A stretch of 64,000 nt of DNA from an uncultured Anaerolineaceae bacterium (GCA_964518505.1 CAZFGT010000005.1:20358-84357), one strand, 5' to 3'. Shown: positions 6,201 through 64,000, counted from the stretch's first letter. Translations and numbers: made by a program. The notes: generated by a model from the letters alone, not told the origin.

Positions 6201-9892
<3,692 letters not shown>

Positions 9893-10171
9893 CCGGCCTT
9901 TCGTATCCGTCGAGCGTGACTCGTGCACGGTCAGCTTCGGGCCTGCCGACGGGCGCCACCATTGTCGTTCGGCTCACCATCCGGTGCCCATCGGCCCCTT
10001 TCGGACCCCAGCGCGCACGGTCAGACGGGCGCGGTCCCTTGGTCCGGGGCGCGCCCGGCCGGATGGTCGGGTTGCCAAGAGCGGGTCGGCGGGGGTAGGG
10101 TGCGGCAGCCGCCGGGAGCCCGCGGGCCGACGCCGGCAGGCCCTGCGATCCCCGCGAACCGGAGCGACCCG

Positions 10172-12301
10172 ATGTCCGACCAGCGCCCTCGGCAGCCCGG
10201 CGTGCGCGCCGTGCGCCCCCGCTCCAGCGGTCGCCCTCGCCTCACCTTCCGCCTGGCGGCGGTGGCCCTTCTGGGAGCATCCGTCCTCGCCCTGGGCGGA
10301 CCCGGCGCGACGCTCGCCGCGGCCAGCCACGCGGCCGCGCCCGCCCCGACCGTCGAGCAGGCCTCGGCACCCATGCCCAAAGGGCTCACCGGTGAGGTCT
10401 ACGGCTTCCTGCCCTACTGGGAGATCGATAGCGGTACCGACGCGTACCTGCGCTACGACCTCATCACGACCATCGCCCTCTTCGCCGTCTACTACGACGC
10501 GTCCGGCAACCTCAACACGTCGACCCTGCTGGGAAGCGGCCGGGCGGCCCTGATCAGCACCATCGTCCAGCACGCCCACGCCCAGGGCGTGCGGGTGGAC
10601 CTGACGCTGCGCCCGTCGACCGACACGGCCAACGCCAACCAGGCCTTCTTCGCCAACGCGCCCGCCCAGGCGGCCGCCATCGCCAACATGGCCGCCCAGG
10701 TGGCGTCGCTCGGGCTGGACGGCGCGAACATCGACATCGAGTCGCTCTTCAACAGCGACTTCGCGGCGTACGGCGCGTTCGGGGCGGCCCTCCGCGCGGC
10801 GCTTGTGAAGGCGCACACGAGTGCCCGGGTGACCGTCTCCACCAACGCCAACGTGTCGGGCTCCGGCATGGCCGCCCAGGCCATCTCGCACGGGGTCGAC
10901 CGGGCTTTCCTGATGGGCTACAACTACCGCGGCTCCACAAGCAGCCCGGTCGGCTCCATCTCGCCGCTCGTGAGCTCGGTGGGCGGCCTCAGCCTGAGCT
11001 GGTCGATCGGCCAGTACGACAAGCTGGATGTGCCGCGCAACCGCATCATCCTTGGCCTGCCCTACTACGGCATGACCTGGCCGACCACGTCGGGCGTCCT
11101 GCATGCCACCCGCTCCGGCACCGGGGTGGCGTTCTTCCCGACCGACAGCCTGCCCCCGCCGGCCGGCACCACGATCAACTACGACGCGGTCGAACGCTCG
11201 GCCTGGTACGCCACCCAGGACCCGACCACCAAGGCCTGGTCCGAGACGTACTTCGACGATGAGACCTCGCTGCGCGCCAAGTACGGCCTGGCCGTCAACG
11301 ACGGGCTCGCCGGGGTGGGCATGTGGGCCCTTGGCTACGACCGCGGCCAGCCCGGCTACTGGGAGGCGATCGCCTCGACGTTCGGCGTGCTGCGCCTCGC
11401 CGGCGCGGACCGGTACGGCACGGCCGTCGCGGTCTCGGCCAACCTCCTGCAACCCGGCGCCGGCACCATGATCGTGGCCAACGGCCTGGGCTTTGCCGAC
11501 GCCCTCGGCGGGACGGCCGCGGCCGGTCACCTTGGCGGCTCGCTCCTGCTCACGACACCGACCGCCCTGCCGGCGAGCGTCTCGCTGGAGCTGTCGCGTG
11601 TCGGTCCATCCAACGTCATCGTGCTCGGCGGGAAGAGCGTCGTGTCGGACGCCGTCCTGGATGCGATCAAGGCGCGGCTGCCGGACGCGACCGTGATACG
11701 GATCGGCGGGGCGGACCGGTATGCCACCGCCGCGGACCTGTCCCAGGCGGTCTACCCAGGTGGGGCGAGCACGGTCTTCATCGCCTCCGGGGCCGCCTAT
11801 CCCGACGGCCTCGCCGGGGGCGCCGAGGCAGCCAGGCTGGGCGCGCCCCTGCTGCTGAGCGACTCACGAAGCCTCTCGCCGGCGACGTTGACGGAACTGA
11901 AGCGCCTGGCCCCGACCACCGTGTACCTCCTGGGCAGTACGGCCTCCCTCTCGAGCGCGGTCGCCACGGCGGTCAGCGCCGCCGTGCCCCTGGCCACCGT
12001 GGCGCGGCTTGGCGGCGCCGACCGGTACGCCACTTCGGTGGCCATCTCCGGGCTCCAGGGCCCGGGCGTGCCGGTGGTCTACGTCGCCGCCGGCACGAAC
12101 TTCCCCGACGGCCTCAGCGGGTCGGCCGCCGCCGGCGAGCTGGGCGGACCGCTGCTGCTGACGGCGCCCGGCGCCCTGCCCGTGAGCGTGGCCACCGAGC
12201 TCGCGCGCCTCAAGCCGCGGCGGGTCGTCGTCCTGGGCGGCACCAGCGCGGTCAGCAACACGGTCGTGCTGCAGCTGCGGGGGTACCTCGCTCTCCCCTG
12301 A
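10172..12301 (+). CDS. secreted glycoside hydrolase family 18-like domain fused to three cell-wall-binding CWB2 repeats (start trimmed to MSDQRP)
   Basis: Signal peptide RLTFRLAAVALLGASVLALG. The GH18 catalytic region is LGLDGANIDIES, a variant of DGxDxDxE. Three tandem about 100-aa repeats (ADRYGTAVAVS / ADRYATAADLS / ADRYATSVAIS ... FPDGL ... LLL) are typical of PF04122 CWB2. GGAGCG lies upstream of the ATG at 10172. Confidence 0.8.
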   Translation: MSDQRPRQPGVRAVRPRSSGRPRLTFRLAAVALLGASVLALGGPGATLAAASHAAAPAPTVEQASAPMPKGLTGEVYGFLPYWEIDSGTDAYLRYDLITTIALFAVYYDASGNLNTSTLLGSGRAALISTIVQHAHAQGVRVDLTLRPSTDTANANQAFFANAPAQAAAIANMAAQVASLGLDGANIDIESLFNSDFAAYGAFGAALRAALVKAHTSARVTVSTNANVSGSGMAAQAISHGVDRAFLMGYNYRGSTSSPVGSISPLVSSVGGLSLSWSIGQYDKLDVPRNRIILGLPYYGMTWPTTSGVLHATRSGTGVAFFPTDSLPPPAGTTINYDAVERSAWYATQDPTTKAWSETYFDDETSLRAKYGLAVNDGLAGVGMWALGYDRGQPGYWEAIASTFGVLRLAGADRYGTAVAVSANLLQPGAGTMIVANGLGFADALGGTAAAGHLGGSLLLTTPTALPASVSLELSRVGPSNVIVLGGKSVVSDAVLDAIKARLPDATVIRIGGADRYATAADLSQAVYPGGASTVFIASGAAYPDGLAGGAEAARLGAPLLLSDSRSLSPATLTELKRLAPTTVYLLGSTASLSSAVATAVSAAVPLATVARLGGADRYATSVAISGLQGPGVPVVYVAAGTNFPDGLSGSAAAGELGGPLLLTAPGALPVSVATELARLKPRRVVVLGGTSAVSNTVVLQLRGYLALP

Positions 12302-13119: not shown

Positions 13120-13207
13120 TGGCGGAGAGGGTGGGATTCGAACCCACGAGGCTTTCGCCCGGCGGTTTTCAAGACCGCTGCCATCAACCACTCGGCCACC
13201 TCTCCGC
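13120..13207 (-). tRNA. tRNA-Ser (anticodon UGA), 88 nt with long variable arm, CCA encoded
   Basis: The minus-strand transcript GCGGAGAGGUGGCCGAGUGGUUGAUGGCAGCGGUCUUGAAAACCGC...GGGUUCGAAUCCCACCCUCUCCGCCA folds as a cloverleaf. Anticodon loop CUUGAAA, T-loop GGUUCGAAUCC, and a long extra arm. Confidence 0.9.
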
Positions 13208-50631: not shown

Positions 50632-51897
50632 CTACGGATAGAGGCCGCGCAGGGCAGTGGCAGAGGCGACGCGGTCAACGGCCAGCAGGTAGGCGCCGAC
50701 GCGGTTGTTGACCTCGTTCGACTGGGCCAGCCGCAGCACCTCGTGGAAGGCCTTGACCATGATGACCTTGAGCTTGTCGTTGACGACTTCCTCGGTCCAG
50801 TGGTCGCGGTTGAGGTCCTGCACCCACTCGAAGTAGCTGACGGTGACGCCGCCGGCGTTGCACAGGATGTCGGGGATGAGGAAGATGCCGCGCTCGAACA
50901 GCCGCTCGTCGGCTTCCGGCGTGGTGGGCCCGTTGGCCGCCTCGGCCACGATCCGAGCCTTGACGTCATCCGCGTTCTTGGCCGTGATCTGGTTCTCCAG
51001 GGCGGCCGGGATGAGGATGTCGCACTCGGTGGCAAGGACGTCCATGTTGGAGATATCGCGCGAGCCGGGGAAGCCCTGGACCGTGCCGTGCTCCTTCTTC
51101 CAGGCGATGACGCGCTCGACGTCGAGCCCCTCGGCGCGGTGGATGCCACCGGTCGAGTCGGAGACGGCGACGATGCGAGACCCCTCGGCTGCCATCAGCT
51201 GCGCCGCGATGGAGCCGGCGTTGCCGAAGCCCTGGATGGCGACCGTGCTCTTGTGCAGGTCCATGCCCAGGTGGTCGGCGGCCTCGACGATGCAGTACAC
51301 GGCGCCGCGGGCGGTCGCCTCGTTGCGACCCTCCGAGCCACCGAGGCTGATGGGCTTGCCGGTGACCACGCCCGGGACGGTGTACCCGACATGCATGGAG
51401 TAGGTGTCCATGATCCAGGCCATCGTCTGGGAGTTCGTGTTGACGTCGGGGGCCGGGATATCACGCTCGGGTCCGATGAGGACGCTGATCTCCGTGGCGA
51501 ACCGGCGGGTGAGGCCTTCCAGCTCCTTGAGCGAGAGCTTCTTGGGGTCGACGATGACGCCGCCCTTGCCACCACCGTACGGGATGCCCACCACGGCGCA
51601 CTTCCAGGTCATCCACATCGAGAGGGCCTTGACCTCGTCGAGGGAGACGTCCTGGTGGTAGCGGATGCCACCCTTGGCCGGGCCGCGGCCCAGGTTGTGC
51701 TGGACGCGGAAGCCGGTGAAGACCTGCACGGAGCCATCGTCCATATGGACGGGGAAGTGGACGGTGAGCTCGCGGCGGGGCTCACGAAGGACGCGGCGGA
51801 GGCCGGGATCCAGGTTGAGCTTCTCGGCCGCGAGGTCGAACTGGCGCTGGGCCACCTGCCACGCATTGATGTGGGCGGCGACCTGCTCGGTTGTCAT
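50632..51897 (-). CDS. gdhA: glutamate dehydrogenase (Glu/Leu/Phe/Val dehydrogenase family)
   Basis: Catalytic Lys region (GGAKGGI: PYGGGKGGVIVDPK) and Rossmann motif (AIQGFGNAGSIAA). 421 aa. Confidence 0.9.
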   Translation of the reverse strand: MTTEQVAAHINAWQVAQRQFDLAAEKLNLDPGLRRVLREPRRELTVHFPVHMDDGSVQVFTGFRVQHNLGRGPAKGGIRYHQDVSLDEVKALSMWMTWKCAVVGIPYGGGKGGVIVDPKKLSLKELEGLTRRFATEISVLIGPERDIPAPDVNTNSQTMAWIMDTYSMHVGYTVPGVVTGKPISLGGSEGRNEATARGAVYCIVEAADHLGMDLHKSTVAIQGFGNAGSIAAQLMAAEGSRIVAVSDSTGGIHRAEGLDVERVIAWKKEHGTVQGFPGSRDISNMDVLATECDILIPAALENQITAKNADDVKARIVAEAANGPTTPEADERLFERGIFLIPDILCNAGGVTVSYFEWVQDLNRDHWTEEVVNDKLKVIMVKAFHEVLRLAQSNEVNNRVGAYLLAVDRVASATALRGLYP

Positions 51898-52017: not shown

Positions 52018-52863
52018 TCATGACGGTCGGTATAGACACACCGCGCCATAGGCCCCGGGGCCGACGTGCGGCCCGATGCTGGCCCCGATGACGGCCGTGG
52101 AGATGCGCTCGGGGGCCAGGCCGGTGCGAGCCAGCACCTGCTCGCGGAACGTGTCGATGTCGGCCGTCCGGGCGTGCAGGATGGCCAGACGGTCGAGCGG
52201 GCGGGCCGTGATCAGCTCCAGCAGCCGCTCCCTGGCCTTGCTTCGGGTGCGCACGCGGTCGAGCGTTTCCACGACCCCGTCCTTGATGGTGATGATCGGT
52301 TTGACGGCGAGGACCGAACCGATGGCGGCCTGGCGCCCGCTGATGCGGCCGCCCCGGCGCAGGTGCTCGAGCGTCTCCAGGGCGACGTAGAAGCCCAGGT
52401 CGGCGGCCCGGGCGACGGTCCGCTGGGCGATCACCGCCGCGGGCTCGCCGGCGTCGCGGAGCGCCGCGGCGACCTGCAGCAGGAGGCCCTCCCCCATCGA
52501 GGCGCACTCGCTGTCGATGACATGGATCTCGCGCGCAGCCAGCTGCTGGGCGGCGATCTGGGCGCTCTTCAGGGTGGCCGACAGCTTGCCGCCGACAGTC
52601 ACGCAGATGATGGCCTCCGCACCGCCGTCGAAGCAGGCCTGGAAGGCGGCCAGGAAGTCGGCCGGGCTGCACGCCGAGGTCCGCGGCAGGGGCGTGCCCG
52701 GGACCGCCATACGCTCCCAGAACGGCTCCGGCGGTAAGTCGCTGGCGCGGATCTCCTCGTCCCCGAAGTAGACCAGGAGAGGCACGACCGTGACCTCGAG
52801 GGCGGCAGCCAGGTCGGGCGGCAGGTCGGCCGCCGAGTCGGTGACGAGGGCGATGCGCTGCAT
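52018..52863 (-). CDS. DegV family fatty-acid-binding protein (start trimmed to MQRIALVTD)
   Basis: IALVTDSAADLP ... ETLEHLRRGGRI ... typical DegV/EDD fold signature. The upstream 110 codons of the track ORF are Arg/Gly-rich shadow sequence. Confidence 0.7.
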   Translation of the reverse strand: MQRIALVTDSAADLPPDLAAALEVTVVPLLVYFGDEEIRASDLPPEPFWERMAVPGTPLPRTSACSPADFLAAFQACFDGGAEAIICVTVGGKLSATLKSAQIAAQQLAAREIHVIDSECASMGEGLLLQVAAALRDAGEPAAVIAQRTVARAADLGFYVALETLEHLRRGGRISGRQAAIGSVLAVKPIITIKDGVVETLDRVRTRSKARERLLELITARPLDRLAILHARTADIDTFREQVLARTGLAPERISTAVIGASIGPHVGPGAYGAVCLYRPS

Positions 52864-52871
52864 GGATCTCC

Positions 52872-54107
52872 TCAGACGCGCTCGAAGGCCATGGCCACGG
52901 AGCCCCCCCCGCCGAGGCACAGGGTCGCCAGCCCGAAGCGTCCCTCCCGGCGCCGCAGCTCGTGGAGGAGCGTGGTGACGATCCGGGCGCCGCTGGCCCC
53001 GATGGGGTGGCCAAGGGCGATGGCGCCGCCGTTGACGTTGACGCGCGACCAGTCGAAGCCCAGCTCGCGGCCGTCGGCCAGGACCTGGGCGGCGAAGGCC
53101 TCGTTGATCTCGACGAGGTCGAAGGCCTCGAGCGGCATGTCCACCCGGGCCAGCAGCCGACGCACCCCTTGGACCGGCGCGAGGAAGAGCCATCGCGGGG
53201 CGACCTCCGCCTGGGCGTAGCCCACGATCCGGGCGAGCGGCTGGAGGCCAAGACGCTCCACGGCCCGCTCGCTGGCGACCACGGTGGCGGCCGCCCCATC
53301 GGTGATCCCGGGCGCGTTGCCGGCCGTCACGGTCCCCACCCCGTCGGCCGGCCCCTCATCGCCGCTCGGCAGGTCGAAGGCCGGCTTCAGGCGGGCCAGC
53401 GCCTCAGCGGAGGTGTCGCGCCGCGGTCCCTCGTCGCCGCTGAAGAGGACCTCCTCGCGGCCCTGGCGGACCGGCACCGGCACGATCTCGTCGACGAAGC
53501 GCCCCGCATCGATGGCGGCGATGGCCTTCTGGTGGCTGGCGAGGGCGAAGGCGTCCTGGTCGGCGCGGCTGACCCGGTCGTGGACGGCCACGCGCTCGGC
53601 GTGGGTGCCCATGTGGCAGCCCTCGATGGCGCACCACAGGCCGTCCACGACGGTGCTGTCGACCAGCTCGCCCGGGCCCAGGCGGTACCCGAAGCGGGCC
53701 TTGCGCAGGAGGTAGGGCCCCTGGTCCATGTTCTCCATGCCGCCGGCCACGGCCACCTCGGCATCCCCGGCACGGATCTCCGCCGCGGCCAGCATGATGG
53801 CCTTCAGGCCCGAGCCGCAGACGCGGTTGATGGTCGTGGCGCTGGTCGTGTCGGCGAGCCCGCCGGCGAGGGCCGCCTGGCGCGCTGGGGCCTGGCCGGC
53901 GCCGCCCTGGAGCACCTGCCCCATGAGGACCTCATCGATCCCGTCCCGCGCCACGCCGGCCCGCTCCACGGCCGCGGCGATGGCGATGCCACCGAGCGTC
54001 GTGGCCGGGACGTCGGCGAGGCTGCCCCCGAAGCGGCCGATCGGCGTGCGCACCGCCGAGACGATGAAGATATCGCCGCTGGGCCCGGACGCCGGGGCGG
54101 CGCTCAC
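52872..54107 (-). CDS. acetyl-CoA C-acetyltransferase (thiolase II)
   Basis: IFIVSAVRTPIGRFGG ... active-site Cys region NRVCGSGLKAIMLAA ... C-terminal GLATLCLGGGGSVAMAFE. Confidence 0.9.
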   Translation of the reverse strand: MSAAPASGPSGDIFIVSAVRTPIGRFGGSLADVPATTLGGIAIAAAVERAGVARDGIDEVLMGQVLQGGAGQAPARQAALAGGLADTTSATTINRVCGSGLKAIMLAAAEIRAGDAEVAVAGGMENMDQGPYLLRKARFGYRLGPGELVDSTVVDGLWCAIEGCHMGTHAERVAVHDRVSRADQDAFALASHQKAIAAIDAGRFVDEIVPVPVRQGREEVLFSGDEGPRRDTSAEALARLKPAFDLPSGDEGPADGVGTVTAGNAPGITDGAAATVVASERAVERLGLQPLARIVGYAQAEVAPRWLFLAPVQGVRRLLARVDMPLEAFDLVEINEAFAAQVLADGRELGFDWSRVNVNGGAIALGHPIGASGARIVTTLLHELRRREGRFGLATLCLGGGGSVAMAFERV

Positions 54108-55006
54108 CGGCCGGGCTCCCGCGCGGGACGGGGGTAGACGTAGAAGCCACGGCCGGATTTCTGGCCGAGGTGGCCCGCGTCGACGAGCTGGCGCAGCACC
54201 GGTGGCGGGGCGAGGTGGGGCGCTCCGAAGCCCTCGTGGAGCACCTCCATGACGTGGAGGCAGACGTCGAGGCCGATGAAGTCGGCCAGTTCGAGGGGGC
54301 CCATGGGGTGCCGCAGGCCCAGGCGGGCACCGGTGTCGATGTCCTCGGCCGTCCCCACGCCCTCTTCGTAGGCCCGCATGGCCTCGCCGAGCAGGGGCAT
54401 GAGGATGCGGTTGACGAGGAAGCCCGGCCGGTCACGGCTGACGATGAGCTCCTTGCCGGTGGCCGCCGCGATGGCCCGGACGTGGCGGGCGGTCGCCTCG
54501 CTCGTCTCGGTGCCCATGACCATCTCGAGGAGCGGCATGACCGGCACCGGGCTGAAGAAGTGCGTCCCCACCACCTGCGGGCGGCGGCGCGGGGACACAG
54601 CAGCCGCCAGCCGGGTGATGGAGATCGAGCTGGTGTTGCTGCCGATGATCGCCCGCGCGGGCAGGCGCGCGTCCAGTTCCACCAGCAGTGACCGCTTGAG
54701 GGCCTCGTCCTCGAACACGGCCTCGATCGCCAGCGAGGCGCCTTCCGCCGCTTCGGCCAGGGAGGCGGTCGCCTCCACCCGGGCAAGCTGGGCGGCCGAC
54801 TCAGCGGCGGCCAGGCGACCCTTGGCCACGGCGCGCTCGAGGTTGCCGGCGATGCGGGTGCGGCCCGCCTCGGCACGGACCAGGTCGGGCTCGTAGAGCG
54901 ACACGCGGTGGCCGGCCGCGGCGAGGACCTGGGCGATGCCGTGGCCCATCAGGCCGGCGCCGCACACGACGACGGACCCGGGTGCACGGGTGGACGGTGC
55001 GGCCAT
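54104..55006 (-). CDS. hbd: 3-hydroxybutyryl-CoA dehydrogenase (3-hydroxyacyl-CoA dehydrogenase family)
   Basis: NAD Rossmann motif VVVCGAGLMGHGIAQVLA ... SNTSSISIT ... THFFSPVPVMPLLE. The ATGA overlap with thiolase places both in one operon. Confidence 0.85.
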   Translation of the reverse strand: MAAPSTRAPGSVVVCGAGLMGHGIAQVLAAAGHRVSLYEPDLVRAEAGRTRIAGNLERAVAKGRLAAAESAAQLARVEATASLAEAAEGASLAIEAVFEDEALKRSLLVELDARLPARAIIGSNTSSISITRLAAAVSPRRRPQVVGTHFFSPVPVMPLLEMVMGTETSEATARHVRAIAAATGKELIVSRDRPGFLVNRILMPLLGEAMRAYEEGVGTAEDIDTGARLGLRHPMGPLELADFIGLDVCLHVMEVLHEGFGAPHLAPPPVLRQLVDAGHLGQKSGRGFYVYPRPAREPGR

Positions 55007-55011
55007 GGCGC

Positions 55012-56001
55012 TCAGCGTACCGCCAGCGCAGCCAGCAGACGGTCGGCCGCCGCATAGGGGTCCAGGCGGTGGGCGGCGATATCGCGCACCGCCGCGTCCA
55101 GGATCGGCACCAGGGTGGGCTCGCGGAGGCGGTCGCGCAGGCGTTCGGCCAGCACGCCGTCCAGCTGCACCCGGGCCCTGGCCAGGCGCGAGGTGTCGGG
55201 GGCAGCCGGCCCGCGGCGTCGGTCAAGCACGGCCAGCAACTCCGGCACGCCAGCCCCTGTGGCGGCGGTCGTCAGCAGCACTTCAGGCCGCTTGGGCCGT
55301 GGGCGCCCGGCGGCCAGGGCGGCCCGGTCCTGCTGGGCCCCGACGGTGAGCATCGCCCGCAGCTGGGCCGCGGCGCGGTGGGCGCCCGGCCGGTCGGCCT
55401 TGTTGACCACGACCACGTCGGCGACCTCGAGCAGGCCGGCCTTGATGGCCTGCACCTCGTCGCCCATCTCCGGCGCCTGGACCACGACCGTCGTGTCGGC
55501 GATGGCGGCCACCTCCACCTCGCTCTGGCCCGTGCCCACCGTCTCGATGAGGATGAGGTCGAACCCCGCGGCGTCCATGACCGCCGCCGCGCCCACGGTC
55601 GTCGGCGCCAGGCCGCCGGCATGCCCGCGCGCCGCCATGGAGCGGATGAAGACGTCGCGGTCACCGGCGTGCTGCTGCATGCGCACGCGGTCGCCCAGGA
55701 TCGCCCCGCCGGTGATCGGCGACGACGGGTCGATGGCGATGATGGCCACCGGTCGCCGGGCCGCCCGGGCCTCCGCGGTGAGGGCCGCCACGAGCGTGCT
55801 CTTGCCGGCGCCCGGCGCTCCCGTGACACCCACCAGGTGGGCCGCGCCGGCCAGCGGGTAGAGGGCCCGCAGGCCATGCTCACCGGCGGGGGTGCGGTTC
55901 TCCACCTCGGTCAGCAGGCGCGCCAGGGCGCGGCGATCGCCCGCGCGAGCGCGCTGGGCCAGCTCCGCGCCCGCGGCCGCCCCGGTCGGGCGGTCGGTCA
56001 C
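55012..56001 (-). CDS. meaB: methylmalonyl-CoA-mutase-associated G-protein chaperone MeaB/ArgK
   Basis: P-loop [13 protein letters not shown] and the G-domain switch region ([19 protein letters not shown] ... VVNKADR). Confidence 0.85.
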
Positions 56002-56408
56002 GCGGCGTCGCGCCGGTGGACGTTGGCCCGCAGGAACTGCGCCACCTCACCGATCGTCGTACCGGGCCCGAAGACCTCCGCCACGCCGGCCGCCTTGAGG
56101 GCCGGGACGTCGTCGTCGGGGATGATCCCGCCGGCCGTCACGAGGACGTCATCGAGGCCCTCCGCCTTGAGGCCGGAGGTGATGCGTGGCAGAAGTGTCA
56201 TATGGGCGCCGGACAGGATCGAGAGGCCGACCACGTCCACGTCCTCCTGCAGGGCCGCCGCGACGATCATCTCGGGCGTCTGGCGCAGGCCCGTGTAGAT
56301 GACCTCGAAGCCCTCGTCGCGCAGGCCGCGCGCGAGCACCTTGGCGCCCCGGTCGTGGCCGTCCAGGCCGGGCTTGGCGATAAGGACCTTCAGGGGCCGG
56401 TCAGCCAT
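55998..56408 (-). CDS. cobalamin-binding domain protein (acyl-CoA mutase small subunit / B12-binding subunit)
   Basis: 136 aa: [34 protein letters not shown] ... [11 protein letters not shown]. Contains the DxHxxG B12-binding motif (DGHDRG). A 4-bp overlap with meaB. Confidence 0.8.
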
Positions 56409-56459: not shown

Positions 56460-57719
56460 TCATCGCTCCACGAGCCCGATCTGGATCGTGGCCTGGCCGA
56501 CGGCCAGCGTGAAGGCGAGGGACGGACACGAGTTCGACGCTGGTCCATGCTCGCCGATGATCCACGTCATGACGCCTTCGAAGTCGCCCGTCTGGCGGAC
56601 CTCGGCGGGCCCGGCGCCGAGGCTGACCAGGTCGCGCTCCGCGGTCGGCAGGCTGGACCCCTCGACGCCGGTCAGCACCACCCGCCAGTAGCTGTCCCCG
56701 GCGACCGTCACCGGGAGTCCGCTGGGGTCAAGGGTGAAGGGCGGCGTCGCGGGCTCGACGCGGATGGACACCCCGTTGAGGGACGCCACACGGATGTCCA
56801 CGCTCTGGTCGCGAAGGTGCACGTCCTGGACGGCTTGCAGGTGATCGATGGACGGCTCGGCCGGCCCGCTCCATACGCTGGCCTGACAGGTGGGGCCGCT
56901 GACCGGGGTGAAGGCCAGGGCGGACGTGAAGTCCACCGTGAAGGCCTGGCCGGACCCCGCCTTGGCCCAGGCCACATCGACGCACGCGGGGTCGCTCAGG
57001 CCGACGATCCACCGCGACGCCTGTGAGACGCCCGTTCCGTCGTCGACCGCGACCAGCTCGCGGACCAGCGCGCCCGGACCGGTCTGGTCGAGCTCAGAGG
57101 TGGCCAGCTTGTCGGTCGCCGCGTGATCGAGGGTGATGCTGTAGAAGGCGCGACCGACGATGGTGACCGGCTTGCCGGACGCGTCGGTGAACGGTGCCGA
57201 CGCCGGCTCGACCGTGATCCCGCTGTACGCCAGGCCGGCCTGGAAGGTGACCCGGTCGTAGCCCGGGAAACTGGTCACGGCGACGTCACGGAGCGGGTTG
57301 GACGGGTCGGTCGTCAGGCCGGCGTCGGAGAAGCGCGTGGCGCATGTCTGGGACTCGGCGGGCGAGGGCGGCGGGAGGACGCCCGTCGGCGAAGGTGTCG
57401 GCGTGGTCGGCGACGCCGACGGGGTGGCGAGCGTCGGTGAGGGTGTCGCGCTGGTCGGCGAGGGCGTCAGGACGGCCGTCGGCCCAAGCGGGAGTCGGCC
57501 ACCGGCCACGGCCAGCATCGTCCCCACGAGGGCCACCAGGACGGCCGCGACAAGGAGCCAGAGGGCGCTGCGGCGCGGACCCGCCACGAGCACGGGACGA
57601 CCGGTCGGGCGCTGGGCAGCGGGCGCATCGCTCCACGTCGGGTGCGGCGGGGTCTCGCCGTCCAACAGGTCGTGCAGGCCGGTGGCGAGGCGGCGTTCGA
57701 ACGAGTCGTCAGCGGCCAT
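56460..57719 (-). CDS. putative anti-sigma factor (single-pass membrane protein with Pro/Thr/Ser-rich linker and extracytoplasmic domain)
   Basis: Overlaps the upstream ECF sigma gene by 11 bp. Short cytoplasmic N-terminus, one TM helix (ALWLLVAAVLVALVGTMLAV), then SPTSATPSPTLATPSASPTTPTPSPT and a 280-aa extracytoplasmic domain. Confidence 0.5.
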   Translation of the reverse strand: MAADDSFERRLATGLHDLLDGETPPHPTWSDAPAAQRPTGRPVLVAGPRRSALWLLVAAVLVALVGTMLAVAGGRLPLGPTAVLTPSPTSATPSPTLATPSASPTTPTPSPTGVLPPPSPAESQTCATRFSDAGLTTDPSNPLRDVAVTSFPGYDRVTFQAGLAYSGITVEPASAPFTDASGKPVTIVGRAFYSITLDHAATDKLATSELDQTGPGALVRELVAVDDGTGVSQASRWIVGLSDPACVDVAWAKAGSGQAFTVDFTSALAFTPVSGPTCQASVWSGPAEPSIDHLQAVQDVHLRDQSVDIRVASLNGVSIRVEPATPPFTLDPSGLPVTVAGDSYWRVVLTGVEGSSLPTAERDLVSLGAGPAEVRQTGDFEGVMTWIIGEHGPASNSCPSLAFTLAVGQATIQIGLVER

Positions 57720-58248
57720 GGTCGGCCTCCGGGGAGCGATGGGTCGTGGGGGTCGGGACGGGTGTGTCGAGGTCGAGCCGCAGGCGATCGAGGGCCCGGC
57801 TCAGGATGGCCCCGACGTTGCCGGGGCTGGTCTCCAGGATGGTCGCGATCGTGGCGTAGTCGAAGTCGTGGTAGTAGCGCAGCACGATCGCTGCCCGCTG
57901 GCGAGGCTCCAGGCGCGCCAGGGCCTCTCGCACCGCGACCCGATCGGCGCCGTCGTCCGCCGCCGTGGGACGGTCGTCACGGATGGGGTCGAGCGGCTGG
58001 GCCCAGCGGATGCGCGTGCGACGGAGGCCGCTGAGCGCGGCGTTCACCGCGATGCGGTGCAGCCAGGCCTCCACGGGCACGTCACCGCGGAAGCGGCGCC
58101 GCTCGCGGAAGGCCGATTCGTAGGCGTCCTGGGCCACGTCCGCGGCCAGGCCGGCCTCCCCGCAGATGCCGAGCGTGGTGCGGTAGACGGCCGGATACGT
58201 CCGTTCGTAGAGAGCCGCGAAATCGTCGAGCTGGGCGAGGAAGGTCAC
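57709..58248 (-). CDS. ECF-type RNA polymerase sigma-70 family factor
   Basis: Region 2 (AQDAYESAFRERRRFRGDVPVEAWLHRIAVNAALSGLRR) and region 4 HTH (YATIATILETSPGNVGAILSRALDRLR). Confidence 0.8.
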   Translation of the reverse strand: MTFLAQLDDFAALYERTYPAVYRTTLGICGEAGLAADVAQDAYESAFRERRRFRGDVPVEAWLHRIAVNAALSGLRRTRIRWAQPLDPIRDDRPTAADDGADRVAVREALARLEPRQRAAIVLRYYHDFDYATIATILETSPGNVGAILSRALDRLRLDLDTPVPTPTTHRSPEADHGR

Positions 58249-61365: not shown

Positions 61366-63984
61366 TCAGCTGGCGGCGGGCAGGCTGGTCGCCCCGACCC
61401 CCAGGAGTGTCTCCAGGTCCTCGGCCGGCATCGGGCGGCCGAACAGATAGCCCTGTCCGCGGTCGCAGCCGACGGCCAGCAGGGCGGCGCGGGCGGCCGG
61501 TGTCTCGATGCCCTCGGCCACGACTTCGATGTTGAGGGCGTGGGCCAGACGCACCACCGCCTCCACGATGGCCAGGTTGCGTTCGGTCTCCCGCCCGACG
61601 ACGAAGGAGCGGTCGATCTTGAGGACCTCGACGGGCATCGTGCGCAAGGTGCTGAGTGATGAGAAGCCGGTGCCGAAGTCGTCGAGGGCGATGGCGACGC
61701 CCAGGCGGCGCAGGTTGCGCAGGGCGGTACCGGCCCGCTCGGAGAGGTCGATGATCATCGACTCGGTGATCTCGAGGTGCAGGGCGCCCGGTGCCAGGCG
61801 TGTCTCGGCCAGGCTGCGCGCCACGCGCTCCGCCAGGTCGGCCTGCTGGAGCTGGCGCACCGACAGGTTGACGCTCAGCGTCATCTCGCGGGAGAACGGG
61901 TACTGCTCGCGCCAGGCATGGACCTGGCGGGCGGACGTGTCGAGGACCCATTGCCCGATGGGCAGGATCAGGCCCGTCTCCTCGGCGACCTGCACGAACG
62001 CGCCCGGCAGCAGCAGACCGCGGCGGGGGTGCTGCCAGCGCACCAGCGCCTCGACGCCCACGAGACGCCCGTCGGCCAGGTCGACCTCGGGCTGGTAGTG
62101 GATGCGCAGCTCGCCCCGCTCCAGCGCGTGGCGGAGGTCGCCCTCCAGCTCCAGGCGCTCCATGGCCCGGCTGTTCATGGCTTCGTCGTAGACCACGAAG
62201 TGGTTGCGGCCCTGGGCCTTCGCCCGGTTGAGGGCCACGTCGGCCTGGCGCATCAGCTCCCCGGCCTTGGTCACCCCCGGCGTGCCGAAGGCGATGCCCA
62301 CGCTGGCGGTCACGAACAGCTCCTGGCCCTGCAGGTCGAAGGCCGCCCGCGTCGCCTCCACCAGCCGACCGGCCACGCGCATGGCGTCCCCCGGAGCCCG
62401 CAGGTCGTCGAGCAGGACGGTGAACTCGTCGCCGCCCAGCCGCGCGATCGTGTCGCCCGGACGGGCGACCGTCGAGAGACGCCGCGCCAGCTGGATCAGC
62501 AGCTCATCGCCCGCCACGTGGCCCAGGCTGTCGTTGACCACCTTGAAGTTGTCGACGTCCAGGAAAAGGACGGCCACCGACCCGAGGGCACGGCGTCGAC
62601 CGAGCGTCTGCTCGAGGCGGTCGCGGAAGAGGGTCCGGTTGGGCAGGCGGGTCAGCTCGTCGTGCAGCGTCTGCCGCGCCAGCTCCGCCTCGAGGCGGCG
62701 GCGGTCGGTCACATCGACGGCCAGCACGAGGCGCTGGTCCTGCCCGCCGTCGTCGATCGCATGCGCCGTGAGCTCGACGTCGATGGCCGAGCCATCGCTG
62801 GTGCGATGGCGCGCCAGGTACGGGCGGCCCATGTCGTCGGCCTCGATGCGCGCCAGGTCATCGGCGTACGTGGCGCCGTCGTCAGCCAGCCAGATGTCGG
62901 CCAGCGAGCGAGCCAGGAAATCGTCGCGCGCGTAGCCGTAGGCCCGCACGGCTGCGTCGTTGACCGCCAGGATGCGGTGGGTGGCCGGGTCGTGGACCCA
63001 CATCGGCTGGGGGTTGTTCTCGAACAGCAGGCGGTAGCGCCGCTCGCTCGCGCCGAGGGCCGCCGCCGAGCGGGTCCGCTCGTCGACCTGCTCCTGCAAC
63101 GCCGCGTAGAGCCGGGCGTGCTCCAGCGCCAACGACGCCAGCTGGGCCAGGCGGTCGAGGCGCGCCAGGTCGTCGGCGGAGAACCGCCGCGCCGGGTCGA
63201 GGTGGCTCAGGCCGATGACGCCCACCACCTGGCCGCCCGAGGTGAGCGGCGCGCCCGCCAGGGCGTGGTAGCCCAGGTCGGCGTAGGCCGGCGCCCGCCC
63301 CGCGAACGTGCTGTAGTCGTCGACCGCGAACGCCTGACCGGTGGCCCACACCCGCCCCGCGACGCCTTGGCCGCGCTGCAGCGGCACGCGTTCCTCGTCG
63401 GCGAAGACGCCGATGCCGATGACCACCCGCAGCTGCTGGCTGGCCTCGTCGAGCAGGTAGATGTACCCGTGGGGCGTGTCCAGGAGGGCCGCCGCGCGGG
63501 TCACGATGGAGCGCAGGACGCGATCCGGGTCCAGGCCGGCCATCAGCTCCAGGGCGGTGTCGTTGAGGGCCGCCAGCTCCTCACGCTGGCGGCGCGCCTC
63601 GTCCTCCACCTCGTGGCGTGCGGTGAAGTCGCTGAAGGTCGAGACGACGCCGGTGAGCTCGCCCTGGGCATCGCGCAGGGGGCTGGCGTTGACGATGAGC
63701 CAGCGCCGGCCGCCACCGACCGGGTCCAGGTTGCCGAGCACCATCTCGCGCACCGGCTCGCCGGTCGCCAGCACGCGACAGGCGGGCAGGTCGGCCAGGT
63801 CGTAGGGGGTGCCGTCCTCGTGGGTGATGTCCCACCCGCCGTCGCGCAGCCCGTGACCCAGCAGGGCGCCCTCGGGCACGCCCATGAGGCGCCACGCGGC
63901 GCTGTTGCCGTAGCGGAAGCTGGTGTCAGGCGCCTGGATCGTCACGCCCACGGGCAGGTCGGCGACGAGCGTGGCGCTGCTCAC
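61366..63984 (-). CDS. PAS-GAF-PAS-GGDEF-EAL multidomain c-di-GMP turnover protein
   Basis: 872 aa. The GGDEF active site reads RLGGDEF, with the upstream nucleotide-binding block ([14 protein letters not shown]). EAL motifs ([22 protein letters not shown]). A GAF region in the N-terminal half. Confidence 0.85.
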
Positions 63985-64000
63985 ATCCGGGGCGTGCGGG

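Follow-up and report, generated by a model that had tools for sequence, protein, structure and literature searches.

What is the catalytic partner of a B12-binding acyl-CoA mutase small subunit that is encoded in one minus-strand cluster with a MeaB-type GTPase, a 3-hydroxybutyryl-CoA dehydrogenase (Hbd), a thiolase and a DegV protein, and where does the gene for that partner lie? The question arises from a 64,000-nucleotide stretch of DNA from an uncultured Anaerolineaceae bacterium (GCA_964518505.1 CAZFGT010000005.1:20358-84357), the whole of which is called the window hereafter. A preliminary description of the cluster had taken the small subunit to be an orphan, whose large subunit was either encoded elsewhere or novel. 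Neither proposal was supported. We found, in contigs of the same population, the gene for an ordinary acyl-CoA mutase large subunit (designated P0255) 1.47 kb past the window end, and it occupies the same place in five relatives. Since the gene sits just beyond the boundary, the "orphan" is a window-edge effect, and no missing or novel catalytic partner needs to be invoked. P0255 appears, from its substrate pocket and its major clade, to be of the isobutyryl-CoA mutase (ICM) type, and the locus probably specifies a two-subunit ICM linked to short-chain beta-oxidation.

All five genes of the cluster were confirmed at the coordinates listed in Table 1, and their packing is as had been described. 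The junctions, read from the sequence, comprise a 4-bp overlap (GTGA) between the small-subunit and MeaB genes, a 5-nt gap between MeaB and Hbd, a second 4-bp overlap (GTGA) between Hbd and thiolase, and an 8-nt gap with GGAG between thiolase and DegV. Genes called independently on public contigs from this population have the same boundaries throughout, and third-position GC is 0.92-0.95 in four of the cluster's genes. The five gene identities proposed earlier are likewise upheld by strong family matches. The small subunit scored 179.6 bits against TIGR00640 (cut-off 57.45), with residues 6-132 covering profile positions 3-129 of 132, and carries the base-off/His-on cobalamin motif DxHxxG as DGHDRG at residues 16-21; its best PDB match was the A. 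pernix B12-mutase small subunit 2YXB (2.4e-44), followed by HcmB 4R3U_C (2.5e-36). MeaB is a chaperone which loads and repairs adenosylcobalamin (AdoCbl) in the mutase. The MeaB protein of the cluster exceeded the cut-off of the TIGR00750 equivalog (293.3 bits against 240.75), has a P-loop GAPGAGKS at residue 61 and NKAD at residue 200, and is related to PDB entries 6CUM, 3NXS, 3MD0 and MeaB 2QM7/8DPB. The true start of the DegV gene is the ATG at 52863, rather than that of a longer open reading frame (ORF) extending to 53193. DegV was rejected as an orthologue of FakB1 because it reached only 109 bits against the FakB1 equivalog, as compared to the 350 required.

The large subunit was sought first in the window itself and found outside it. 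A tblastn search of all 64 kb with E. coli ScpA matched the B12-binding domain only (56058-56399) and no large subunit, in agreement with the earlier remark that the window holds none. MEGAHIT contigs of ENA samples ERZ272453xx/6xx match the window at 99.6-99.9% identity. One metagenome contig, L108, was aligned with the window end over 5,857 columns with 11 mismatches and 1 gap, and extends 4.9 kb further; its positions 7326-9026 encode P0255. The gene thus placed lies 9.06 kb from the small-subunit start codon, on the opposite strand. Contigs L109 (99.76%) and L110 (100%) also match the window end and carry the P0255 gene, so that a separate PF01642 large subunit is located in the same population by three contigs, while L107 carries the gene without overlapping the window. 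P0255 was found by listing the cluster members of the relatives' large subunit, and the four contigs that encode it come from the ENA sample series to which the window's own contigs also belong.

The arrangement is conserved in relatives of the window, which are metagenome-assembled genomes labelled Candidatus Limnocylindria or Limnocylindrales (phylum Chloroflexota). The 794-kb contig L089, of about 92% DNA identity, encodes a small subunit 97% identical to that of the window in the same gene order, and has a 566-aa PF01642 gene on the opposite strand, past the DPBB_1, hypothetical, GGDEF/EAL, DnaJ and DNA-ligase genes. Loci L098, L100, L101 and L102, at 83-88% DNA identity, share this layout. 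On the long-read contig L100 (positions 1-2290), MeaB is called in fragments (186 and 52 aa) and thiolase and DegV as one fused protein (592 aa), most likely owing to indel errors rather than biology.

Several observations concern the contig ends in this region. All contigs carrying the window's exact DnaJ end at or before the DPBB_1 gene, none reaching the large subunit, and exact-pattern scans of JGI metagenome contigs yielded no new contig spanning the window end. At the end of contig L001 (ena:ERZ27245391:k141_450432), positions 1-216, equivalent to about 65,232-65,447 of the window, show no collinearity with L108, L109, L110 or the relatives, and the outermost 29 nt are a repeat of the beginning of contig L107, which comes from the same sample. 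The assembly seems to have broken or folded back here, at the 5' end of the DPBB_1 gene, which is why the obvious contigs end before reaching the large subunit. In the intergenic region between the DPBB_1 and large-subunit genes (L108:7124-7325, window-equivalent 65,267-65,468), about 90 nt are near-identical across relatives of 83-92% identity; this stretch matched no Rfam family.

The class of the large subunit was judged from its substrate pocket. In methylmalonyl-CoA mutase (MCM), Tyr89 and Arg207 (P. shermanii numbering) bind the substrate carboxylate, and in HcmA, the large subunit of 2-hydroxyisobutyryl-CoA mutase (HCM), Asp117 is the hydroxyl-binding residue. Phe and Gln at the two MCM sites are what we take to be the ICM residues, an assignment then compared with Streptomyces proteins. 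Alignments to solved structures gave Phe91, Ala118 and Gln209 (F/A/Q) for P0255, Tyr89, Ala (in SVAFD) and Arg207 (Y/A/R) for P. shermanii MutB (1REQ), and Ile90, Asp117 and Gln208 for HcmA (4R3U_A). With Phe and Gln in place of Tyr89 and Arg207, the linked large subunit was rejected as an MCM, and the look at specificity residues that had been recommended earlier returned the ICM pair rather than the MCM pair. The Streptomyces proteins were retrieved with a fragment of Streptomyces IcmA as probe; the family obtained is 93-97% identical to the probe and 566 aa long, and several of its members are named "isobutyryl-CoA mutase large subunit" in NCBI nr, JGI or UniRef. The ICM-named proteins show WTIRQF, LSVAFD and KEYIAQ, which is the same Phe/Ala/Gln pattern, and WTIRQF and KEYIAQ were found in P0262, P0273, P0299 and P0371. 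In PMC7238569, MCM is told apart from ICM by the two determinant sites that go back to Jost et al. 2015, with Tyr/Arg marking MCM.

At the level of the major clade, tree position agreed with the pocket. A neighbour-joining tree with 300 bootstraps was built from 515 columns, the three signature columns having been left out. In 277 of the 300, the environmental F/A/Q proteins, Streptomyces IcmA and HcmA formed a clade apart from the Y/A/R proteins. Because of its Phe/Ala/Gln pocket and its place in the ICM/HCM major clade, P0255 is classed, on sequence grounds, as ICM-type, with its finer placement moderately supported. None of the NCBIfam models separates ICM from MCM large subunits, and a tblastn search of plasmids with the large subunit brought up no IcmF entry for alignment. 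Of the C4 acyl-CoA rearrangement suggested by the preliminary description, the ICM form is favoured by the Phe/Gln signature of the partner, and the HCM form is contradicted by Phe/Ala at the Ile90/Asp117 sites. The phylogeny of the small subunit, also proposed as a test, cannot discriminate, because the small subunit is equally similar to the partners of Phe/Gln large subunits (63-71% identity) and to those of Tyr/Arg large subunits (64-68%), and the tree does not separate the two types either.

Gene neighbourhoods were compared across the 80 top-ranking genome loci retrieved with the small subunit. In the Limnocylindria-like loci L009-L024 the small-subunit gene is followed by MeaB, Hbd and thiolase in that order, and in some loci DegV and glutamate dehydrogenase come next. 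L009, L010 and L013 have a large subunit of F/A/Q type 6-9 kb upstream of the small subunit; at the upstream edge of L014 a large-subunit gene is partly present, its signature region lying outside the covered part. Adjacency of small subunit, MeaB and Hbd was seen in 13 of the 80 loci and was extended by thiolase in eight, all within L009-L024; five of these eight have an acyl-CoA dehydrogenase gene between hbd and thiolase (Table 1). An AMP-binding acyl-CoA synthetase gene takes this position in L018, and an ORF of similar size is present at L024:13390-15336. The cluster in the window, unlike these other Limnocylindria clusters, has neither the dehydrogenase nor the synthetase. The context of the Limnocylindria clusters is one of short-chain beta-oxidation, which fits an ICM that supplies n-butyryl-CoA for conversion to acetyl-CoA, or a flow in the opposite direction. 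In other phyla the large-subunit gene immediately precedes that of the small subunit. Counted by large-subunit signature, Phe/Gln alone was present at 28 loci, Tyr/Arg alone at eight, and both in tandem at two. At 26 of the 80 loci, all having at least 9 kb of upstream flank, no large subunit was found within 10 kb, so a small subunit without a linked large subunit is nothing unusual. Such stand-alone small subunits, in many cases accompanied by MeaB, were noted at L072, L069, L084 and 23 others (e.g. Chloroflexus islandicus, a Thermoplasmata archaeon and Silvibacterium bohemicum).

Taken together, these data make a two-subunit ICM with a MeaB chaperone, linked to short-chain beta-oxidation, the reading that we regard as likely. 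The window would hold the cofactor half of an AdoCbl-dependent acyl-CoA mutase, namely the 136-aa small subunit and the MeaB-type GTPase, and the catalytic half would be the 566-aa TIM-barrel large subunit encoded 9 kb upstream on the opposite strand. The two would catalyse the reversible 1,2-rearrangement between isobutyryl-CoA and n-butyryl-CoA, with MeaB gating the loading of AdoCbl and the removal of damaged cofactor. Hbd and thiolase could then connect n-butyryl-CoA with acetyl-CoA via crotonyl-CoA, 3-hydroxybutyryl-CoA and acetoacetyl-CoA, a route along which the acyl-CoA dehydrogenase, and in some cases the acyl-CoA synthetase, in the same cluster of sister lineages would also act. The likeliest role may be to channel isobutyryl-CoA derived from valine or isobutyrate into beta-oxidation, although the route is reversible and flux could run either way. 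The five genes are presumably co-transcribed, and DegV may have some part in the pathway.

Several points weigh against this reading. A distance of 9 kb, filled with unrelated genes, lies between the genes for the small subunit and MeaB and that for the large subunit, which is on the opposite strand, and the pairing of the two subunits is therefore put forward as probable only. A second large subunit, encoded elsewhere in the genome, may use the same small subunit. The substrate call draws on two or three pocket residues and on tree position, and the identity of P0255 to Streptomyces IcmA, about 52%, is not above its 54-58% identity to split Tyr/Arg-type mutases. The grouping of F/A/Q proteins with Streptomyces IcmA to the exclusion of HcmA was recovered in 184 of 300 bootstraps (61%, neighbour-joining only). 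Neither a crotonase nor an acyl-CoA dehydrogenase gene was found beside the cluster in the window's genus. Promoter and terminator scans detected nothing that would define a transcription unit, and Rfam scans near the operon and upstream of the large-subunit gene detected no riboswitch.

The proteins were also compared with known mutases. They resemble Streptomyces IcmA/IcmB (S. cinnamonensis type, EC 5.4.99.13) in subunit architecture and sizes, in the identical Phe/Ala/Gln pocket and in belonging to the same major clade apart from MCM. They differ in that the large subunits are only about 52% identical, that a 16-residue insertion of Streptomyces IcmA near residue 435 is absent from P0255, that the host is an uncultured Chloroflexota lineage, and that the small subunit is here translationally coupled to MeaB and to hbd/thiolase. 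In Streptomyces too, icmA and icmB are reportedly unlinked, as papers from the Robinson laboratory in 1998-1999 are said to have described. The three modules of IcmF (Cupriavidus metallidurans, PDB 4XC6), i.e. B12 domain, MeaB-like G-domain and substrate barrel, are all present, and PDB and NCBIfam matches to each were obtained. They are three separate genes here, as compared to one polypeptide of about 1,100 aa, and identity with a fused IcmF was rejected on NF045497 scores of 56.8, 133.5 and 334.1 bits against a cut-off of 1500. Split MCMs of archaea and bacteria (A. pernix 2YXB; M. sedula Msed_0638 and Msed_2055) also have a stand-alone small subunit of about 135 aa, which often adjoins MeaB and is unlinked to the large subunit; the large subunit described here has Phe/Gln instead of their carboxylate-binding Tyr/Arg.

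This last resemblance lends some weight to the best surviving alternative, which we consider unlikely but not negligible: the small subunit and MeaB may be a shared cofactor module serving the ICM-type subunit plus an unlinked Tyr/Arg-type MCM subunit, or the latter alone. Its narrower form, a free-standing module shared by at least two catalytic subunits, the nearby ICM-type and an unlinked MCM-type one, is rather improbable in our judgement. Among solved structures the small subunit is closest to 2YXB, which is an archaeal B12-mutase small subunit; the sequence of the window's small subunit does not follow the type of partner, and its gene is physically uncoupled from the F/A/Q gene. Unlinked MCM subunits have an archaeal precedent in Metallosphaera sedula Msed_0638 and Msed_2055, according to the title under which PMC6759758 cites Han et al. 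2012. Two Chloroflexota loci (L026:5879-11466 and L030:6175-11415) have tandem Y/A/R and F/A/Q large subunits followed by one small subunit and one MeaB, which suggests that one cofactor module may serve two catalytic subunits of different specificity. Were the module shared in this way, its uncoupling from icmA in Limnocylindria would reflect the sharing. However, neither the window nor any of the loci of about 20 kb from close relatives showed a Y/A/R large subunit, and the position of the F/A/Q gene near the small subunit is conserved across the class.

A functional link between the mutase and its neighbours may also be doubted. The mutase genes and hbd/thiolase/DegV could be mere neighbours, the mutase serving some other acyl-CoA need and Hbd and thiolase general acetoacetyl-CoA metabolism. 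Thiolase and Hbd are ubiquitous enzymes of housekeeping type, the acyl-CoA dehydrogenase and crotonase are missing from the cluster in the window's genus, and the order after MeaB varies, with a major facilitator superfamily (MFS) transporter inserted in L011 and a phosphodiesterase in L014. Against this stand the recurrence of the gene adjacencies in the survey, including the dehydrogenase-bearing loci, and the tight spacing in the window, where the 4-bp overlaps translationally couple MeaB with the small subunit and thiolase with Hbd, and MeaB and Hbd are only 5 nt apart. Coincidental adjacency is quite improbable.

Least credible of all, and very improbable, is an HCM system (HcmAB plus MeaH) isomerising 3-hydroxybutyryl-CoA and 2-hydroxyisobutyryl-CoA: HcmA of Aquincola tertiaricarbonis (4R3U_A) is the top-scoring solved structure for P0255 (522 bits), the cluster on the Methylibium petroleiphilum plasmid likewise combines a small subunit of 136 aa with a meaB paralogue and an hbd gene, and Hbd would supply the substrate, but HCM identity was rejected on Phe91/Ala118 where HcmA has Ile90/Asp117, the small subunit is 50% identical to HcmB as compared to 63-71% for F/A/Q-adjacent small subunits, and no acyl-CoA ligase such as a 2-hydroxyisobutyric acid (2-HIBA)-CoA ligase adjoins the mutase genes.

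The genes flanking the cluster were examined as well. Glutamate dehydrogenase, the downstream neighbour, is probably a separate unit; its adjacency on the DegV side is kept in L014, L020, L024 and L089, and the adjacency of thiolase and DegV in L014, L020 and L089. Upstream of the small subunit lie genes for a putative anti-sigma protein and an ECF sigma factor. This pair varies among relatives, and would be a recent insertion or deletion, because it is missing at this place in the 92%-identical L089 and present in L101. The PAS/GAF/GGDEF/EAL signalling protein at 61366-64000 is 894 aa long in public calls and starts about 50 nt past the window end, so the ORF in the window (872 aa, GTG) is 5'-truncated. 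In L108 its gene is called in two pieces (712 and 182 aa), which points to either a frameshift variant or an error in sequencing. Elsewhere in the window, a tRNA gene at 13123-13205 on the minus strand was the sole Rfam match at gathering threshold, and the protein encoded at 9923-12301 had no record in the protein look-up.

Table 1. Location of the cluster, its large-subunit gene, flanking genes and corresponding features in related loci.
Feature	Location	Strand	Remarks
B12-binding small subunit (IcmB-like, two-subunit acyl-CoA mutase)	55998..56408	-	136 aa, ATG; TIGR00640, PF02310
MeaB-family G3E GTPase	55012..56001	-	329 aa, GTG start; TIGR00750
3-hydroxybutyryl-CoA dehydrogenase (Hbd), 3HCDH family	54104..55006	-	300 aa; NF004474 313 bits, PF02737, PF00725
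Thiolase II (acetyl-CoA C-acetyltransferase)	52872..54107	-	411 aa, GTG; TIGR01930 438 bits, NF006086 451 bits
DegV-family fatty-acid-binding protein	52018..52863	-	281 aa; TIGR00762 226.7 bits (cut-off 99.7)
Large subunit P0255	window-equivalent 65,469-67,169 (outside window)	+	566 aa, GTG start, PF01642
Stretch linking window to metagenome contig L108	58144..64000	.	L108 1-5856, 99.795% identity
Glutamate dehydrogenase, downstream neighbour	50632..51897	-	NF040817 589 bits; 120-nt gap before it
AMIN-like putative anti-sigma protein	56460-57719	-	PF24837; directly upstream of small subunit
ECF sigma factor	57709-58248	-	TIGR02983/TIGR02937; upstream of small subunit
Acyl-CoA dehydrogenase between hbd and thiolase	L009:12346-13650		
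Acyl-CoA dehydrogenase between hbd and thiolase	L011:13323-14639		
Acyl-CoA dehydrogenase between hbd and thiolase	L017:5908-7371		
Acyl-CoA dehydrogenase between hbd and thiolase	L020:4601-5773		
Acyl-CoA dehydrogenase between hbd and thiolase	L024:12209-13393		
AMP-binding acyl-CoA synthetase between hbd and thiolase	L018:14342-16279		

The result removes a false lead, as the locus represents neither an orphan B12 subunit nor a system with a missing or novel catalytic partner. It is a real cluster, probably an operon, of an uncultured Chloroflexota lineage, in which the cofactor half of what is probably an ordinary split ICM-type mutase is joined by two beta-oxidation enzymes and DegV. Judged by their sequences, Limnocylindria, an abundant class of soil and freshwater Chloroflexota, together with many Acidobacteriota and other Chloroflexota, appear to have split acyl-CoA mutases with an ICM pocket. 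Such mutases bear the database label "methylmalonyl-CoA mutase family", yet have the ICM pocket and are accompanied by genes of short-chain beta-oxidation. This would have a bearing on how the turnover of valine, isobutyrate and butyrate is reconstructed for these uncultured groups.

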